A stretch of 64,000 nt of DNA. Source: a virus. Lineage: Duplodnaviria; Caudoviricetes. The translations under genes were made by a program, and so were the position numbers. Where the stretch lies: IMG/VR virus record IMGVR_UViG_3300033475_000009, positions 1 through 64,000 of that record; one strand, given 5' to 3'. This document shows positions 4,878 to 23,929 of the stretch, piece after piece. The notes beneath the pieces are model-generated. The model was not told the origin of the DNA. It did no database searches and saw only the letters and a list, made by a program, of their open reading frames with translations. How positions within the stretch are numbered: the first letter of the stretch is position 1; every line of letters begins with the position of its first letter.

Positions 4878-4919
4878 AAATATTTATTTTGGGTTGTTTG
4901 CAATTTAGTAAAATATTAT

Positions 4920-4927
4920 TACCTTTA
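4920..4927 (+). promoter_or_regulatory. -7-like promoter element for leader 1
   Basis: TACCTTTA, TTTG at 4897-4900, ATG 4 nt downstream. Confidence 0.55.
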
Positions 4928-4931
4928 CATT

Positions 4932-4985
4932 ATGTTATTCACTAGAAAAAATAATAATGGTAAGGATTGGGCTAGAAGGGTCTAA
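4932..4985 (+). CDS. attenuator leader peptide 1 MLFTRKNNNGKDWARRV
   Basis: 17-codon ORF; KNNNGKDW run matches downstream tRNAs Trp/Gly/Asn/Asp/Lys. Confidence 0.85.
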   Translation: MLFTRKNNNGKDWARRV

Positions 4986-5012
4986 GGCTAAACTATTATA
5001 TAAATATATTAG

Positions 5013-5050
5013 AATCCTTAGACCTGATAAATCTAAGGATTTTTTATTTT
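5013..5050 (+). terminator. attenuator terminator 1
   Basis: AATCCTTAGA/TCTAAGGATT stem + TTTTATTTT; 5' arm can instead pair with GGTCTAAGG (4979-4987). Confidence 0.85.
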
Positions 5051-5052
5051 AT

Positions 5053-5121
5053 ACACTTTAGGCTAAGGTAGCCAAGAGATCTCCAAAATCTTAGGAAGTA
5101 GTTCGATTCTACTAGAGTGTG
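5053..5121 (+). tRNA. trnW: tRNA-Trp(CCA)
   Basis: ACACTTT/AGAGTGT acceptor, GAGAT-CTCCAAA-ATCTT anticodon arm, AGTAG-TTCGATT-CTACT T arm. Confidence 0.85.
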
Positions 5122-5126
5122 CATAA

Positions 5127-5198
5127 GCAGTATAAGTGTTGATGAATACATACCTGACTTCCAATCAGGAGTAGACAGATTATTACTGTCATACTGCT
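5127..5198 (+). tRNA. trnG: tRNA-Gly(TCC), atypical T loop
   Basis: GCAGTAT/ATACTGC, CCTGA-CTTCCAA-TCAGG, T loop ATTATTA, U73. Confidence 0.8.
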
Positions 5199-5203
5199 CT
5201 AAA

Positions 5204-5275
5204 GAGATAGGTAATAGTTCGATTCTATTTATAATATCTTAAAGATATTATAAGGTGTACTGGTGGCATAATCTC
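5204..5275 (+). ncRNA. circularly permuted tRNA-like RNA 1
   Basis: GAGAT - T arm AATAG/TTCGATT/CTATT - closed acceptor-like hairpin TATAATATCTT/AAGATATTATA - D arm GTGT/ACTGGTG/GCAT - ATCTC. Confidence 0.7.
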
Positions 5276-5279
5276 GCAT

Positions 5280-5351
5280 GGGAAGTTAGCTTAATGGTAA
5301 AGCTTCTAGCTGTTAACTAGAAAGATATTAGTTCGAGTCTAATACTTCCCT
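5280..5351 (+). tRNA. trnN: tRNA-Asn(GTT)
   Basis: GGGAAGT/ACTTCCC, TCTAG-CTGTTAA-CTAGA, canonical D and T arms. Confidence 0.95.
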
Positions 5352-5357
5352 CTACAA

Positions 5358-5513
5358 TGTTAGGTGATGAAATTGGTAGACATTTCCCTACTGTCTCTAG
5401 GGAGAGGAACAACTGATAAACTCAGAATAGTGGATTGACCACCAAAGTAAGTTAAAAGATATTTTGTTCTGAAGCTAAAGTCCTCGTGTAAGGTTCGAGT
5501 CCTTCCCTAACAG
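5358..5513 (+). ncRNA. tRNA-like RNA with GTC anticodon and 85-nt variable arm
   Basis: TGTTAGG/CCTAACA acceptor, class II-type D arm, TCCCTA-CTGTCTC-TAGGGA, variable arm closed by GAGGA/TCCTC, T loop TTCGAGT. Confidence 0.8.
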
Positions 5514-5514
5514 C

Positions 5515-5638
5515 TAAGAAAGAAGAATAGGTTAAAAACCTATATAAGTAAATGTTGGCTAGAACTAAAATATTAAAAGTAATATAGATAACGCTTTTAT
5601 TTTATACTTATTGATGTAACTGACAGCATACTTTCTTA
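5515..5638 (+). ncRNA. circularly permuted tRNA-like RNA 2
   Basis: TAAGAAAG - ATAGG/TTAAAAA/CCTAT - ATAAGTA...54 nt...TACTTAT - TG - ATGT/AACTGACA/GCAT - A - CTTTCTTA. Confidence 0.6.
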
Positions 5639-5642
5639 ACCT

Positions 5643-5714
5643 GGTCTATTAGTATAATGGTTATTATATTCCACTGTCACTGGAAAGAAGAGAATTCAAT
5701 TTTCTCATAGACCG
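5643..5714 (+). tRNA. trnD: tRNA-Asp(GTC)
   Basis: GGTCTAT/ATAGACC, TTCCA-CTGTCAC-TGGAA, G73. Confidence 0.9.
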
Positions 5715-5719
5715 CTTAT

Positions 5720-5793
5720 TTCCTTGTAGCTTAATTGGCTAAAGCACCATCCTTTTAAGATGGGTTATGTGAGTTCAAATCTCACCAGGGAAA
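5720..5793 (+). tRNA. trnK: tRNA-Lys(TTT)
   Basis: TTCCTTG/CAGGGAA, CCATC-CTTTTAA-GATGG. Confidence 0.92.
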
Positions 5794-5809
5794 CTAAAAT
5801 TTATTTTAT

Positions 5810-5817
5810 TATCTTTA
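5810..5817 (+). promoter_or_regulatory. -7-like element for HNH 1
   Basis: TATCTTTA-CAAA-ATG, same spacing as leaders 1 and 3. Confidence 0.45.
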
Positions 5818-5821
5818 CAAA

Positions 5822-6271
5822 ATGAAAAAATGTACTAGATGTAAAGAAGAAAAATCTTTTGAATCCTTTAGTATAAAAGGAAATAGAAAAAAAGATAATA
5901 GTATTATATATCAAGATTTTTGTAAGAATTGTCAAAATGAATATACTAAAAAATGGTATATAGAGAATAAAGAGAAACATAAAAGAAATACAGCTATTCT
6001 AAATAAGAAAAACTTTGAAAGTATTCGATATTACATATACAATTATTTAAAAGATAAAGAATGCATAGATTGTAAATCAATAGATTTTAGAACTTTTCAA
6101 TTTGATCATAGAGATAGAAATAACAAAGTTTCAGAAATATCTACAATGGTAAAAAATAGAGTTAGACTAGAATTGATAAAGTTAGAAATAAATAAATGTG
6201 ATATAAGATGTGCTAATTGTCATATCATTAAAACAGGTATTGAAAATAATGCTTGGTGGACAAAATTATAA
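5822..6271 (+). CDS. HNH endonuclease, homing type, with Zn-binding N-terminus
   Basis: CTRC...CKNC; CIDC...FQFDHRD...KCDIRCANCHIIKT. Confidence 0.85.
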   Translation: MKKCTRCKEEKSFESFSIKGNRKKDNSIIYQDFCKNCQNEYTKKWYIENKEKHKRNTAILNKKNFESIRYYIYNYLKDKECIDCKSIDFRTFQFDHRDRNNKVSEISTMVKNRVRLELIKLEINKCDIRCANCHIIKTGIENNAWWTKL

Positions 6272-6312: not shown

Positions 6313-6320
6313 TAGTTTTG
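6313..6320 (+). promoter_or_regulatory. -7 promoter element for tRNA-Met and leader 2
   Basis: TAGTTTTG matches TAnnTTTG, 8 nt before the tRNA. Confidence 0.55.
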
Positions 6321-6328
6321 TACCATAT

Positions 6329-6401
6329 TGCGAGTAGGACAAGTGGCTAAGTCAGAAGTCTCATAAGCTTTCAGGAGTGGGTTCAATTCCCACACTCGCT
6401 A
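6329..6401 (+). tRNA. trnM: tRNA-Met(CAT), probably initiator type
   Basis: TGCGAGT/ACTCGCT with 1:72 mismatch, GAAGT-CTCATAA-GCTTT, A73. Confidence 0.85.
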
Positions 6402-6412
6402 CTAAAAATAAT

Positions 6413-6481
6413 ATGAAAAATTTATCACTATATAGTTTATGTTCGTATCTCTTATATAAAGAGGTTGATATAACTATATAG
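6413..6481 (+). CDS. attenuator leader peptide 2 MKNLSLYSLCSYLLYKEVDITI
   Basis: 22-codon ORF; 12 consecutive Leu/Ser/Tyr/Cys codons matching the downstream array. Confidence 0.88.
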   Translation: MKNLSLYSLCSYLLYKEVDITI

Positions 6482-6510
6482 TAAATAAAAAACTAATAAA
6501 TAGTTATTTG

Positions 6511-6545
6511 ACCTCTAGGAATAAAATCTTAGAGGTTTTTTATTT
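6511..6545 (+). terminator. attenuator terminator 2
   Basis: ACCTCTAGGA/TCTTAGAGGT + TTTTTATTT; alternative helix 6460-6477 with 6500-6516. Confidence 0.85.
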
Positions 6546-6548
6546 CAG

Positions 6549-6784: not shown

Positions 6785-6870
6785 AGAGAGTAAACTAATC
6801 AGGGGATTAGACCTTCCTGCTAAGAAGTGTGAAGCCTAAAAACTTTGAGTTTCGAGTACTCTGCTCTCTG
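6785..6870 (+). tRNA. trnS: tRNA-Ser(GCT)
   Basis: AGAGAGT/GCTCTCT, CTTC-CTGCTAA-GAAG, long variable arm, G73. Confidence 0.88.
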
Positions 6871-6876
6871 CTATAA

Positions 6877-7078: not shown

Positions 7079-7153
7079 ATGAAACAGATAATAATAGCCA
7101 TTATTCGTATAGCAGTCAGATCTAATCTGAGTGAGGATAATGTTATTATATAA
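7079..7153 (+). CDS. attenuator leader peptide 3 MKQIIIAIIRIAVRSNLSEDNVII
   Basis: 24-codon ORF; 11 consecutive Ile/Ala/Arg/Val codons matching the downstream array. Confidence 0.88.
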   Translation: MKQIIIAIIRIAVRSNLSEDNVII

Positions 7154-7186
7154 GATACGATTGTTGTAGATTTTGATTAATACACT

Positions 7187-7221
7187 AGCCTTACTCTAAA
7201 AAAGTAGGGCTTTTGTATTTT
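7187..7221 (+). terminator. attenuator terminator 3
   Basis: AGCCTTACT/AGTAGGGCT + TTTGTATTTT; alternative pairing GAGTGAGG (7129-7136) with CCTTACTC (7189-7196). Confidence 0.82.
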
Positions 7222-7223
7222 AT

Positions 7224-7740: not shown

Positions 7741-7800
7741 ATGAAGAATGTAACAATCTTTACTCCCTTTACGCAAGAGCATCAGTTTCTGATGGGGTAA
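7741..7800 (+). CDS. attenuator leader peptide 4 MKNVTIFTPFTQEHQFLMG
   Basis: 19-codon ORF; Thr/Phe/Gln/Glu/His make up 10 of 12 codons in the control run, matching the downstream array. Confidence 0.88.
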   Translation: MKNVTIFTPFTQEHQFLMG

Positions 7801-7833
7801 AGGATATTGTTTTCTTCTACATTAAATTTCCTT

Positions 7834-7871
7834 CCCTATCAAACTAAAAATCTGATAGGGTTTTTCTTTTT
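7834..7871 (+). terminator. attenuator terminator 4
   Basis: CCCTATCA/TGATAGGG + TTTTTCTTTTT; alternative pairing TGATGGGG (7790-7797) with CCCTATCA. Confidence 0.85.
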
Positions 7872-7881
7872 ATGTATTTAT

Positions 7882-8382
7882 ATGATAGTAAGTTGTCAAC
7901 ACTGTGGAAAAGATTTTAATTGTACTAGTAGAAGATATAATTTTAATATTAAAAAAGGTTTTAAAATATATTGTTCTAGAGAATGTAATCATAAAGATAA
8001 AATTAAAAACATAATAGTAAGATGTAATTATTGTGGTAAAGAAGTAATTAAAAAACAATATAATCTAAATAAAACTAAATCAGGTAATTATTATTGTAAT
8101 AAGTCTTGTGCTAATTCTATAAATAATTCTTTGTATAAAGTTGGAGAAAAGCATCCTAATTTTATTAATGGTAGATCCTCATATAGAAATATAAAACTTA
8201 GAGATTCTAATTACTGCTGTGAAAATTGTGGAATAACTGATAAAAGAGTTATAGAAGTTCATCATATAGACAGAGATAGAACCAATAATAAATTAGAAAA
8301 TCTTAAAATTTTATGTGCTAATTGTCACTTAATAGAACATTATGAAGAAAGAAAATTAAAAAATGGTGTTAGTGGCAGATAG
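7882..8382 (+). CDS. HNH endonuclease with Cys-rich Zn-binding repeats (166 aa from the corrected start)
   Basis: CQHCGK..YCSREC, CNYCGK..YCNKSC, CENCG..EVHHIDRDRTNNKLENLKILCANCH; start moved downstream of the terminator. Confidence 0.85.
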   Translation: MIVSCQHCGKDFNCTSRRYNFNIKKGFKIYCSRECNHKDKIKNIIVRCNYCGKEVIKKQYNLNKTKSGNYYCNKSCANSINNSLYKVGEKHPNFINGRSSYRNIKLRDSNYCCENCGITDKRVIEVHHIDRDRTNNKLENLKILCANCHLIEHYEERKLKNGVSGR

Positions 8383-8442: not shown

Positions 8443-8514
8443 GCTCCTGTCGTCTAGTGGCTAGGACGAATGCTTTTCAAGCATTAAAAGAGGGATCGAA
8501 ACCCTTCAGGAGTA
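8443..8514 (+). tRNA. trnE: tRNA-Glu(TTC)
   Basis: GCTCCTG/CAGGAGT, AATGC-TTTTCAA-GCATT. Confidence 0.9.
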
Positions 8515-21810: not shown

Positions 21811-23100
21811 ATGGGAAAACCAGTTGAAAAAGTATTAGTAACAAATGTTACTGGTGCAAATACAGGAACAAGTGTAGCCACTATTGTAAATGGTGATATA
21901 CTTATTTTCAATAGAACCTGGGGTACAGCTCTAACTGGTACTCCTACAATTACTTCTAATACTGCTAATGACGTTATCTATATTTCTTTAGGATTAGCTC
22001 CAGAAGGTAACATGACAATGCTTACCTCAGATGCTATACCTGTTAGAAATGTTACAGGATATACTCTTAGCACTTATGTAGCTCCAGTTGAAGAAGTTAT
22101 GACTATACCTTTTGGTACTAATGTTATAACTAGTAATTCTGAGTATTCTTTCGATATTCAGTATATTAACTCTAACTTTAGAGTACTTCAACAAAAGCCT
22201 ATGGCTGAAAGATATAGTTATGTAACTACAGCTAATGCTACTCAAGCTGAATTAGCTTTTGCTATGGCAGTTAGAGCAGGTAATGATAATAACGCTAATA
22301 GATATAGAAAAGTAGAAGTTACTTCAGATGGTACATTTACTGCTTCTTCAGGTGGTGCTGCTACTATGACTCAGTATAGTAAAACATTTACTATTGTTGA
22401 ATCTTCAGGTGGTGCTAATGATGCAGGTCTATATAATGCTGATGGTTCTCAGATGAAGGTAGGAGATATTCTAAAAATAGGTGGTACAAGTGCTACTACT
22501 CCTCTATATCAAATTACAGCAGTAAGCGGTATAGGTACAGCTTTAGCTACTATTAGTATCTCTGAAAGATATCAAGCTACTTCAGGTTCAGTATCAGCAC
22601 CTAATCTATTAGTACAAACTACAGCTGCTACTACTTATAACTTGGTTATTACAGGCTTACCTATTCAACCAACTTCTTCTAGTCCTAATATTCCTCTGGA
22701 TCTATATACTAAAGTAAACTTTACTATTACTTTATTTGAAGTAAATGGACCAGTAGTACCTGCATTTACTCCTACTATAACTACTAGTCTTAACTGGGGT
22801 ATTGGTTATTGGGAAGAAGTTAGAGATAAAGAGTTCTTGGCTTCAGGATACCTTGGAGTACAGAATAGAACTATGTTCCCTGGAATGCTTCTTAACCCTC
22901 CAATCCATGCAGTGTCTGGAAACCAGTATGATTTATTAACTATTTCTTATTATGAGAAAGTAGTAGATGGCCTTAATGCAGTAGATAATAATTCTAAAAT
23001 TCTTACAATTGCATTTAAATCAGATGTAACTACTAAAAGAGCTGCTGTAGTAACTATTCTAAACTCACTATTTGGATCGGTAGGTCTACCAGCACAATAG
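21811..23100 (+). CDS. abundant virion protein, auxiliary capsid-like
   Basis: 429 aa; Thr/Ala/Gly-rich; followed by a terminator. Confidence 0.6.
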   Translation: MGKPVEKVLVTNVTGANTGTSVATIVNGDILIFNRTWGTALTGTPTITSNTANDVIYISLGLAPEGNMTMLTSDAIPVRNVTGYTLSTYVAPVEEVMTIPFGTNVITSNSEYSFDIQYINSNFRVLQQKPMAERYSYVTTANATQAELAFAMAVRAGNDNNANRYRKVEVTSDGTFTASSGGAATMTQYSKTFTIVESSGGANDAGLYNADGSQMKVGDILKIGGTSATTPLYQITAVSGIGTALATISISERYQATSGSVSAPNLLVQTTAATTYNLVITGLPIQPTSSSPNIPLDLYTKVNFTITLFEVNGPVVPAFTPTITTSLNWGIGYWEEVRDKEFLASGYLGVQNRTMFPGMLLNPPIHAVSGNQYDLLTISYYEKVVDGLNAVDNNSKILTIAFKSDVTTKRAAVVTILNSLFGSVGLPAQ

Positions 23101-23149: not shown

Positions 23150-23186
23150 AAGTAAGCTGTAACTAAAAACTACAGCTTACTTTTTA
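23150..23186 (+). terminator. intrinsic terminator
   Basis: AAGTAAGCTGTA/TACAGCTTACTT + T-tract. Confidence 0.8.
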
Positions 23187-23215
23187 TATACTAGTATTTT
23201 ATCTATATTTACTTC

Positions 23216-23929
23216 ATGTCTAAACTCTCAGAAATTATCTCTACTATAAGAAATCTACCTAGAGGTGGTCAGGGTGATTTTGATGATAATGCTTATACTG
23301 ATAGACAAATAGCTTTTATAGTAAACTACTATAGAGCAAAATTAGTACAGCAGGATATAGATAGAGGTAGTTATTTAACTCAGTTCTATAATCAAACATT
23401 AGGTAAAGTAAAACTTATAAGAGCTACTAAAATAGAATGTGGTGATATGGATTGTGAAGTAGGTAACTATATTTTAAGATCTGAATTTGAAATACCTAAA
23501 GCAATAGATACTAAAGACAAAAATTTAATAACTTATGTAGGTACAGTAGATGGTAATTTACCTTATCAAAGAACTACATTTCAAGAAGCTACTTTTGATA
23601 AATATGCTAAATATACCGGTAGAAGAACTAAGTATTATGAATTAAATAATTATATTTATATAATAAATCCACCTACTAATAATCTTAAGTATATTACTAT
23701 AATAGGTGTATTTGAAGACCCTATTAAGGTAAATGAATTTAAGAAAGTAGCTTGTGATAGTAATGACTATTGTTTTAATCCTTTTGATATGGAATATCCA
23801 ATGGGTATGAAATATATAGATACTATTTATAAGTTAATAACAGCTACTGAGTTTAGATTTAATCATATATTACAATATGATACATCTAATAACTCTAAAG
23901 ATGATAATCAAATAGTTCCAGTTCAATGA
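23216..23929 (+). CDS. tail ring protein (crAss-like)
   Basis: TDRQIAFIVNYYRAKL, GVFEDP, EYPM motifs. Confidence 0.65.
   Translation: MSKLSEIISTIRNLPRGGQGDFDDNAYTDRQIAFIVNYYRAKLVQQDIDRGSYLTQFYNQTLGKVKLIRATKIECGDMDCEVGNYILRSEFEIPKAIDTKDKNLITYVGTVDGNLPYQRTTFQEATFDKYAKYTGRRTKYYELNNYIYIINPPTNNLKYITIIGVFEDPIKVNEFKKVACDSNDYCFNPFDMEYPMGMKYIDTIYKLITATEFRFNHILQYDTSNNSKDDNQIVPVQ

Follow-up and report, generated by a model that had tools for sequence, protein, structure and literature searches.

The window, that is, the whole stretch of 64,000 nucleotides analysed here, has a G+C content of 26-30% and belongs to a virus record of 90,549 bp with terminal repeats, recovered from a soil metagenome. The phage is uncultured; the only sequencing run found to contain its DNA in full was one of soil DNA, possibly the source itself, and no RNA run was among those listed. 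The terminase, portal and major head proteins of the phage match phage families, and the head protein shares 35-37% identity with its counterparts in crAss-like phages of Bacteroides, Flavobacterium and Cellulophaga. An ORF of 3513 codons is also present, and a Shine-Dalgarno core precedes only 1 of 33 long ORFs. Taken together, the head protein identity, the giant ORF, the scarcity of Shine-Dalgarno cores and the low G+C content point to a divergent crAss-like phage with a Bacteroidota host. On the plus strand between 4.9 and 8.8 kb, 21 tRNA genes were called by ARAGORN, and a tRNA-Gly(UCC) was detected by Rfam only. The block studied here (5053-5794) is preceded by a candidate promoter, a short ORF and a set of alternative RNA helices, which we refer to as cassette 1. 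Its features are as follows.

4897-4900, plus strand: TTTG, putative -33 element (-35 to -32 relative to 4932)
4920-4927, plus strand: TAccTTTA, candidate Bacteroidota sigma-A -7 box, 4 nt before the ATG
4932-4985, plus strand: leader ORF of 17 codons, ATG at 4932 and stop codon TAA at 4983-4985
4947-4970, plus strand: control codons 6-13, AAA AAT AAT AAT GGT AAG GAT TGG (Lys Asn Asn Asn Gly Lys Asp Trp)
4954-4973, plus strand: region 1, 5' strand of the 1:2 hairpin in MFE folds, overlapping the control codons
4978-4987, plus strand: region 2, 5' strand of the antiterminator, spanning the stop codon and pairing with 4967-4973 (default) or with 5016-5025
5011-5025, plus strand: region 3, used by the terminator as its 5' arm (5011-5022) and by the antiterminator (5016-5025)
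5032-5044, plus strand: region 4, 3' arm of the terminator
5042-5050, plus strand: U tract TTTT A TTTT (TTTTATTTT after the hairpin, to 5050), ending 2 nt before tRNA-Trp
5053-5122, plus strand: tRNA-Trp(CCA), the first gene behind the terminator
5127-5198, plus strand: tRNA-Gly(UCC) with a non-canonical T loop, Rfam tRNA score 35.7 bits, missed by ARAGORN
5280-5352, plus strand: tRNA-Asn(GUU), called by ARAGORN
5643-5715, plus strand: tRNA-Asp(GUC), called by ARAGORN
5720-5794, plus strand: tRNA-Lys(UUU), called by ARAGORN, closing the block

Several other elements lie in or near the array. Within block 1, a tRNA-like RNA at 5358-5513 has GUC in its anticodon loop, a D arm of the Leu/Ser type and a variable arm about 85 nt long; it was called by neither ARAGORN nor Rfam. 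The spacers at 5199-5279 and 5515-5640 likewise carry no assigned feature. Two HNH endonuclease genes (5822-6271 and 7882-8382) interrupt the array. Outside the window, the minus strand of the record carries a tRNA-Met and a short tRNA match (record positions 87307-87380 and 76165-76226); a leader cassette was found at neither, and the short match is omitted by ARAGORN.

The candidate promoter resembles those of the presumed host phylum. The sigma-A consensus of Bacteroidota is TAnnTTTG spanning -12 to -5 (PMC9723704), and TTTG near -33 belongs to the promoter consensus of this phylum (PMC7366714). The candidate box at 4920-4927 ends in A where the consensus has G. As it ends 4 nt before the ATG, the predicted +1 is the A of the start codon, and the mRNA of cassette 1 is probably leaderless with its start site at ATG 4932. 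The same arrangement of box, 4 nt and ATG occurs at 5810 (first HNH gene), 7067 (cassette 3, see below) and 23204, while the box pattern as such showed no significant enrichment in the window (9 matches, with 4.7 expected; at least 9 in 7 of 100 shuffles). At 23151-23218 a terminator-like hairpin follows an ORF ending at 23100; behind it come a -7 box, 4 nt and the ATG at 23216, an order which suggests that the phage commonly begins leaderless mRNAs directly past terminators. Translation of the leader ORF (4932-4985) would likewise proceed without a Shine-Dalgarno sequence. Since such cores are absent from 32 of the 33 long ORFs, a leader ORF lacking one is normal in this phage.

The control codons reported at codons 6-13 by the first-pass annotation were read directly at 4947-4970, and its reading of the ORF as a sensor for Lys, Asn, Gly, Asp and Trp agreed with the downstream block, whose five tRNAs (Trp, Gly, Asn, Asp and Lys) have the same five identities. 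A run of eight residues drawn from {W,G,N,D,K} was the sole case among 416 ATG ORFs of 10-40 codons in the window's six frames, with 4 as the next best run. These five amino acids make up 30% of residues, and the Trp codon is rare (0.8% of residues). The control codons are those favoured by the phage's own genes (AAA 80%, AAT 91%, GGT 54% and GAT 92%). Because they are its commonest synonymous codons, the leader would act as a test ORF that samples the demand of these genes. The glycine codon deserves a remark, as a UCC anticodon cannot read GGT by ordinary wobble. The tRNA-Gly(UCC) of the block may read it via superwobble, and the GGT of the leader could equally be read by a host tRNA-Gly(GCC). 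A second frame, from an internal ATG at 4957, passes through the terminator.

The helices of cassette 1 were arranged as expected for a termination switch. As the first-pass annotation had stated, GGTCTAAGG (4979-4987, across the stop codon) is the exact reverse complement of CCTTAGACC (5016-5024). The latter sits inside the 5' arm of the terminator (5011-5022 with 5032-5043/44), which confirms the further claim that antiterminator and terminator exclude each other. A Watson-Crick match of 9 nt between the upstream 77 nt and the terminator arm arose in only 0.75% of 2000 dinucleotide shuffles (P = 0.0075). In the MFE fold, the 1:2 hairpin consists of the pairings 4954-4961:4992-4999, 4963-4964:4988-4989 and 4967-4973:4979-4985. 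It had been called less obvious than its counterparts, and it is indeed weak, with several G-U pairs and a z-score of -1.7, but it is still present in the MFE fold. The z-scores of the terminator hairpin alone and of the whole element were -3.6 and -2.2, respectively. The helix energies were -12.1 kcal/mol for 1:2, -16.1 kcal/mol for 2:3 and -11.7 to -12.1 kcal/mol for 3:4, from which the default fold is predicted to be 1:2 plus the terminator, whereas blocking region 1 would let the antiterminator win. Terminator 1 is modest, with three G-C pairs and a 9-nt loop, and owing to this modest stem and loop it was missed by the consensus scan. Searches with the Rfam T-box and the Trp, His, Leu and Thr leader families gave nothing at gathering score in the window, and at E ≤ 10 the region 4880-5830 returned a non-significant 'trpB motif' (20.3 bits against a cut-off of 59, E = 4.5).

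The effect of a ribosome on these helices was modelled by treating it as an unpaired footprint from -15 to +11 around the A site and computing the probability of the terminator helix in a transcript ending at 5041. This probability was 0.94 in the free RNA and 0.95 with the ribosome at codons 2-4, fell to between 0.18 and 0.00 at codons 6-13, and returned to 0.95 from codon 14 to the stop codon. The proposal that a ribosome which has reached the stop codon masks the antiterminator was thus borne out in silico. Under six footprint settings the read-through window stayed 7-8 codons wide and shifted by at most 2 codons. As the modelled read-through is confined to codons 6-13, stalls on codons belonging to other blocks are predicted not to open cassette 1. 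In leader 1 such codons stand near the start (Leu, Phe and Thr) and near the end (Ala, Arg and Val). The predicted folding of cassette 1 hence fits the needs of a channel-specific sensor.

Cassette 1 is not alone in the window. Three further cassettes lie downstream in the tRNA array.

6413-6546, plus strand: cassette 2, leader ORF 6413-6481 and terminator 6510-6537, before tRNAs for Leu, Leu, Tyr, Ser and Cys
7079-7222, plus strand: cassette 3, leader ORF 7079-7153 and terminator 7187-7211, before tRNAs for Ala, Ile, Arg, Arg, Val and Ile
7741-7871, plus strand: cassette 4, leader ORF 7741-7800 and terminator 7834-7860, before an HNH gene and then tRNAs for His, Glu, Thr, Phe and Gln

Each of the four leaders was the unique top scorer in the window for its own tRNA block. 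In a 4 x 4 matrix of leaders by blocks, the own-block runs of leaders 1-4 were 8, 12, 11 and 7, and the off-diagonal values did not exceed 4. With G-U pairs allowed, the P values of the antiterminators of cassettes 1-4 were 0.016, 0.0025, 0.022 and 0.038. In cassettes 2-4 region 2 repeats the 3' arm of the cassette's own terminator. A strict search for a hairpin followed by a T run returned 13 sites in the 64 kb; four of them separate a short ORF from a tRNA block, the rest being at gene ends.

Some details of the array around these cassettes were also recorded. A tRNA-Met (6329-6402) with a -7 box of its own (6313-6320) ends 10 nt before leader ORF 2 (6413); since it precedes attenuator 2, it would be transcribed ahead of it and escape attenuation. 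Its positions 1 and 72 are unpaired. An earlier reader had proposed a second Ser tRNA at 6786-6872, which was supported by neither ARAGORN nor Rfam. By eye the segment can be folded as a possible tRNA-Ser(GCU), which would account for the AGT codon of leader 2. The second HNH gene lies between terminator 4 and the tRNAs of that cassette, and the 3' end of the gene overlaps tRNA-His (8365).

The sensor might be real and its output a different one, namely 5' processing or stability of the tRNA precursor, or Rho-type polarity. In fact, the hairpin and U tract (to 5050) end only 2 nt before the RNase P site of tRNA-Trp (5053), and the terminator stem is only moderately strong. However, the repeat shared by regions 2 and 4 and the exact 9-bp pairing of 2:3 suit a termination switch. 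Furthermore, a G+C-rich hairpin followed by a T run occurs in all four cassettes and in the corresponding units of other phages (see next), and the same style of hairpin is found at gene ends, so we regard an output of this kind as unlikely.

Units consisting of a leader, a terminator and tRNA genes were also found in other phages. Further loci were retrieved via neighbouring or embedded genes (an RNase H-like protein and an HNH alignment), and nine more units were identified on five contigs: L018, L019 (three units), L103, L122 and L202 (three units). The closest relative by the RNase H-like neighbour protein, among IMG/VR and metagenome contigs, was 53% identical, and most of the loci had no tRNA array. 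With the HNH protein as sole query no relatives were found, and a DNA search of the phage collection gave single-tRNA matches only. The tRNAs of the other contigs are about 60-65% identical to those of the window and are grouped differently, and each leader names its own block. For example:

L019, leader for Asn/Trp/Met/Ile/Arg
L019, leader for Pro/Gln/Leu/Phe/Asp/His/Gly
L018, leader for Ser/Tyr/Phe/Cys
L202, leader for Pro/Tyr/Phe/Cys/Arg
L103, leader with a 16-residue run for Pro/Gln/Ser/His/Leu/Arg
L122, minus strand, ORF at reverse-strand position 8509: five consecutive Lys codons, a strong terminator and then five tRNA-Lys genes

The leaders of L018, L019 and L202 are likewise preceded by the box, 4 nt and a start codon. 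When the blocks were permuted among the 13 leaders, the diagonal sum of 116 compared with a mean of 36.9 and a maximum of 91 (200,000 permutations; P ≤ 5e-6), and the test is conservative since unit 1 of L019 was anchored out of frame.

Additional observations were made on these contigs. The order of -7 box, tRNA-Met and leader ORF is repeated in L019, and related HNH genes lie inside the arrays of L019 and further contigs. In L202 a Ser(GCU)-like tRNA, of which only the 5' half is present, follows the Gln-His block on the minus strand (about 5560-5605) and is continued by unrelated sequence. The leader of this block keeps Ser and Leu codons, and it seems to preserve a trace of the tRNAs that its block once had.

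These data bear on a reading in which the ORF arose by chance in AT-rich DNA and the hairpin serves simply as a terminator, or as an insulator separating divergent transcription units and tRNA sub-operons. Codons for Lys, Asn and Asp are common at 28% G+C, and the five amino acids of block 1 account for the large share of residues given above. The run of eight is nevertheless unique among the short ORFs, contains the rare Trp and covers all five identities of the block. The same match recurs in three neighbouring cassettes and in nine units elsewhere. In addition, genes lying immediately behind a plain terminator on their own strand would be silenced by it. Given the leader statistics, chance is very unlikely, and the reading as a whole is hardly tenable.

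The units differed in how they behaved in the equilibrium model. A clear or partial switch was obtained for cassettes 1 and 4 of the window, partial in cassette 4, and for three units of L019 and L202. Cassette 1 gave the cleanest switch of the four attenuators in the window and is thus not the weakest of them. No equilibrium switch was seen in cassettes 2 and 3, L018, L122 and unit 1 of L202, where strong terminators dominate, and for these units a kinetic argument is needed. The trp attenuator likewise depends on kinetics. In a snapshot of the transcript from before synthesis of the 3' arm, the terminator's 5' arm was already paired upstream when the ribosome stood on the control codons and was freed when the ribosome had moved past them, which supports kinetic switching in cassettes 2-4 as far as the folding model goes.

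We consider it highly probable, on the strength of the sequence and the modelled folds, that 4897-5050 is a promoter followed by a trp-type, ribosome-mediated attenuator which controls the Trp-Gly-Asn-Asp-Lys tRNA block (5053-5794). Transcription would start at or next to ATG 4932 from the Bacteroidota-type promoter, probably by the host polymerase, and a ribosome would enter the 17-codon ORF. The crAss-like phages encode RNA polymerases of their own, and the polymerase used here, the transcription start, translation of the ORF and the response of read-through to decoding speed are what we infer. If aminoacyl-tRNA for Lys, Asn, Gly, Asp or Trp is scarce, be it at the onset of infection, through a mismatch between the host tRNAs and the AT-rich phage or through loss of tRNA, the ribosome would linger on codons 6-13 and hold region 1 (4954-4973) single-stranded. 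Region 2 (4978-4987) could then pair with region 3 (5016-5025), the terminator would be blocked and the polymerase would enter the tRNA genes. When decoding is fast, the ribosome would reach codons 14-18 and cover region 2, so that the 3:4 terminator could form and transcription stop at 5042-5050. Untranslated RNA is expected to terminate too, as region 2 would be sequestered by 1:2. The phage thus probably makes these five tRNAs only while their codons are decoded slowly. Because the block yields the same tRNAs whose shortage the leader would sense, the circuit would be a closed negative-feedback loop on tRNA supply, and cassette 1 would be one of four parallel channels in the phage.

The same mechanism could also respond to amino-acid starvation, with uncharged tRNA rather than tRNA abundance as the signal and the output tied to host nutrition. 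A stalled ribosome is blind to the difference between a missing and an uncharged tRNA, and amino-acid supply is the input of the classical attenuators. However, extra tRNA would not relieve amino-acid starvation and hence would bring no gain, and the leaders name exactly the tRNAs of their own blocks, including paired isoacceptors in cassettes 2 and 3, which fits product feedback. Furthermore, the grouping of amino acids tracks the order of the tRNA genes and not biosynthetic families. We therefore regard starvation as the signal as quite unlikely, and favour feedback on tRNA supply.

The finding bears on why phages carry tRNA genes and how these genes are controlled. A leader spelled in the codons of the tRNAs that it gates implies that the phage gauges decoding speed and supplies tRNAs block by block on demand. 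The reach of classical attenuation would grow to include non-coding RNAs as products and mRNAs that are leaderless, in a phylum lacking Shine-Dalgarno sequences. An annotation rule is provided as well, in that the text of the leader predicts the downstream tRNAs, including non-canonical ones missed by the finders (e.g. tRNA-Gly(UCC)), and the cassettes could act as natural sensors of tRNA availability. More broadly, phage tRNA arrays might be demand-driven closed loops in which each block is gated by a leaderless ORF written in its codons, the leader co-evolving with the content of the block; this is a tentative generalization that we would sooner doubt than assert. If true, it would amount to a read-out of host decoding capacity per codon family, and to an automatic answer whenever host tRNAs fit the phage poorly, are broken down during shut-off or are cut by anticodon-nuclease defences. 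The tRNA-Lys, a member of block 1, is a classical target of such nucleases. The device is not general, since leader/terminator units were missing from the 23-tRNA array of crAss001 (L081, 1-6000) and from several contigs with 14 to 36 tRNAs, large arrays that were used as negative controls. In crAss001, tRNA-Gln and tRNA-Arg(UCU) are directly preceded by an ORF of 4 codons, two of them AGA, which itself comes after a -7 box.

In full-text searches of the literature, we found no published description of leader-peptide attenuation of tRNA genes, and the comparison is therefore with systems that control other genes. The prototype of leader-peptide attenuators is trpL, and leaders sensing several amino acids are known from ilvGMEDA (Ile/Leu/Val) and thr (Thr/Ile). 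Like cassette 1, the ilv and thr leaders have a short ORF in which codons for several amino acids form a run, the alternative helices 1:2, 2:3 and 3:4, a region 2 masked by the ribosome at the stop codon and an intrinsic terminator before the regulated genes. They control biosynthetic enzymes, whereas cassette 1 gates tRNA genes and the sensed molecules are its products; the phage cassettes are moreover probably leaderless, occur in a phage of a Bacteroidota-like host and divide, as a set of four, almost the whole tRNA set among them. That its gated genes encode tRNAs, and not enzymes of amino-acid biosynthesis or aminoacylation, sets cassette 1 apart from the described leader families. A closer functional parallel in E. 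coli is the pheM leader of the pheST operon, where Phe-tRNA synthetase is under leader-peptide attenuation. In both cases a component of decoding is controlled by the speed of the ribosome on cognate codons. In pheM one amino acid is sensed and a protein enzyme is controlled, whereas cassette 1 would sense five tRNA species and supply the same five. T-box riboswitches also read tRNA charging and choose between terminator and antiterminator before translation-related genes. They do so by direct tRNA binding without translation and carry conserved Stem I and T-box motifs, whereas cassette 1 had no Rfam T-box match.

Leaderless attenuators have been reported from mycobacteria, in which leaderless short ORFs with polycysteine runs act as Cys-responsive attenuators (bioRxiv 10.1101/834739). 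They resemble cassette 1 in coupling decoding speed to downstream expression through a codon run in a leaderless short ORF, and differ from it in sensing a single amino acid, in controlling cysteine metabolism genes, in belonging to a different phylum and in having no tRNA output. Nearest to the presumed host, leader-peptide attenuation has been described upstream of amino-acid operons in Flavobacterium psychrophilum (PMC9723704), and attenuation of this kind is therefore at work in the probable host phylum of the phage. That phylum has the same type of promoter and likewise lacks Shine-Dalgarno sequences; the Flavobacterium attenuators control biosynthetic operons of the host, whereas cassette 1 would control tRNA genes of a phage.
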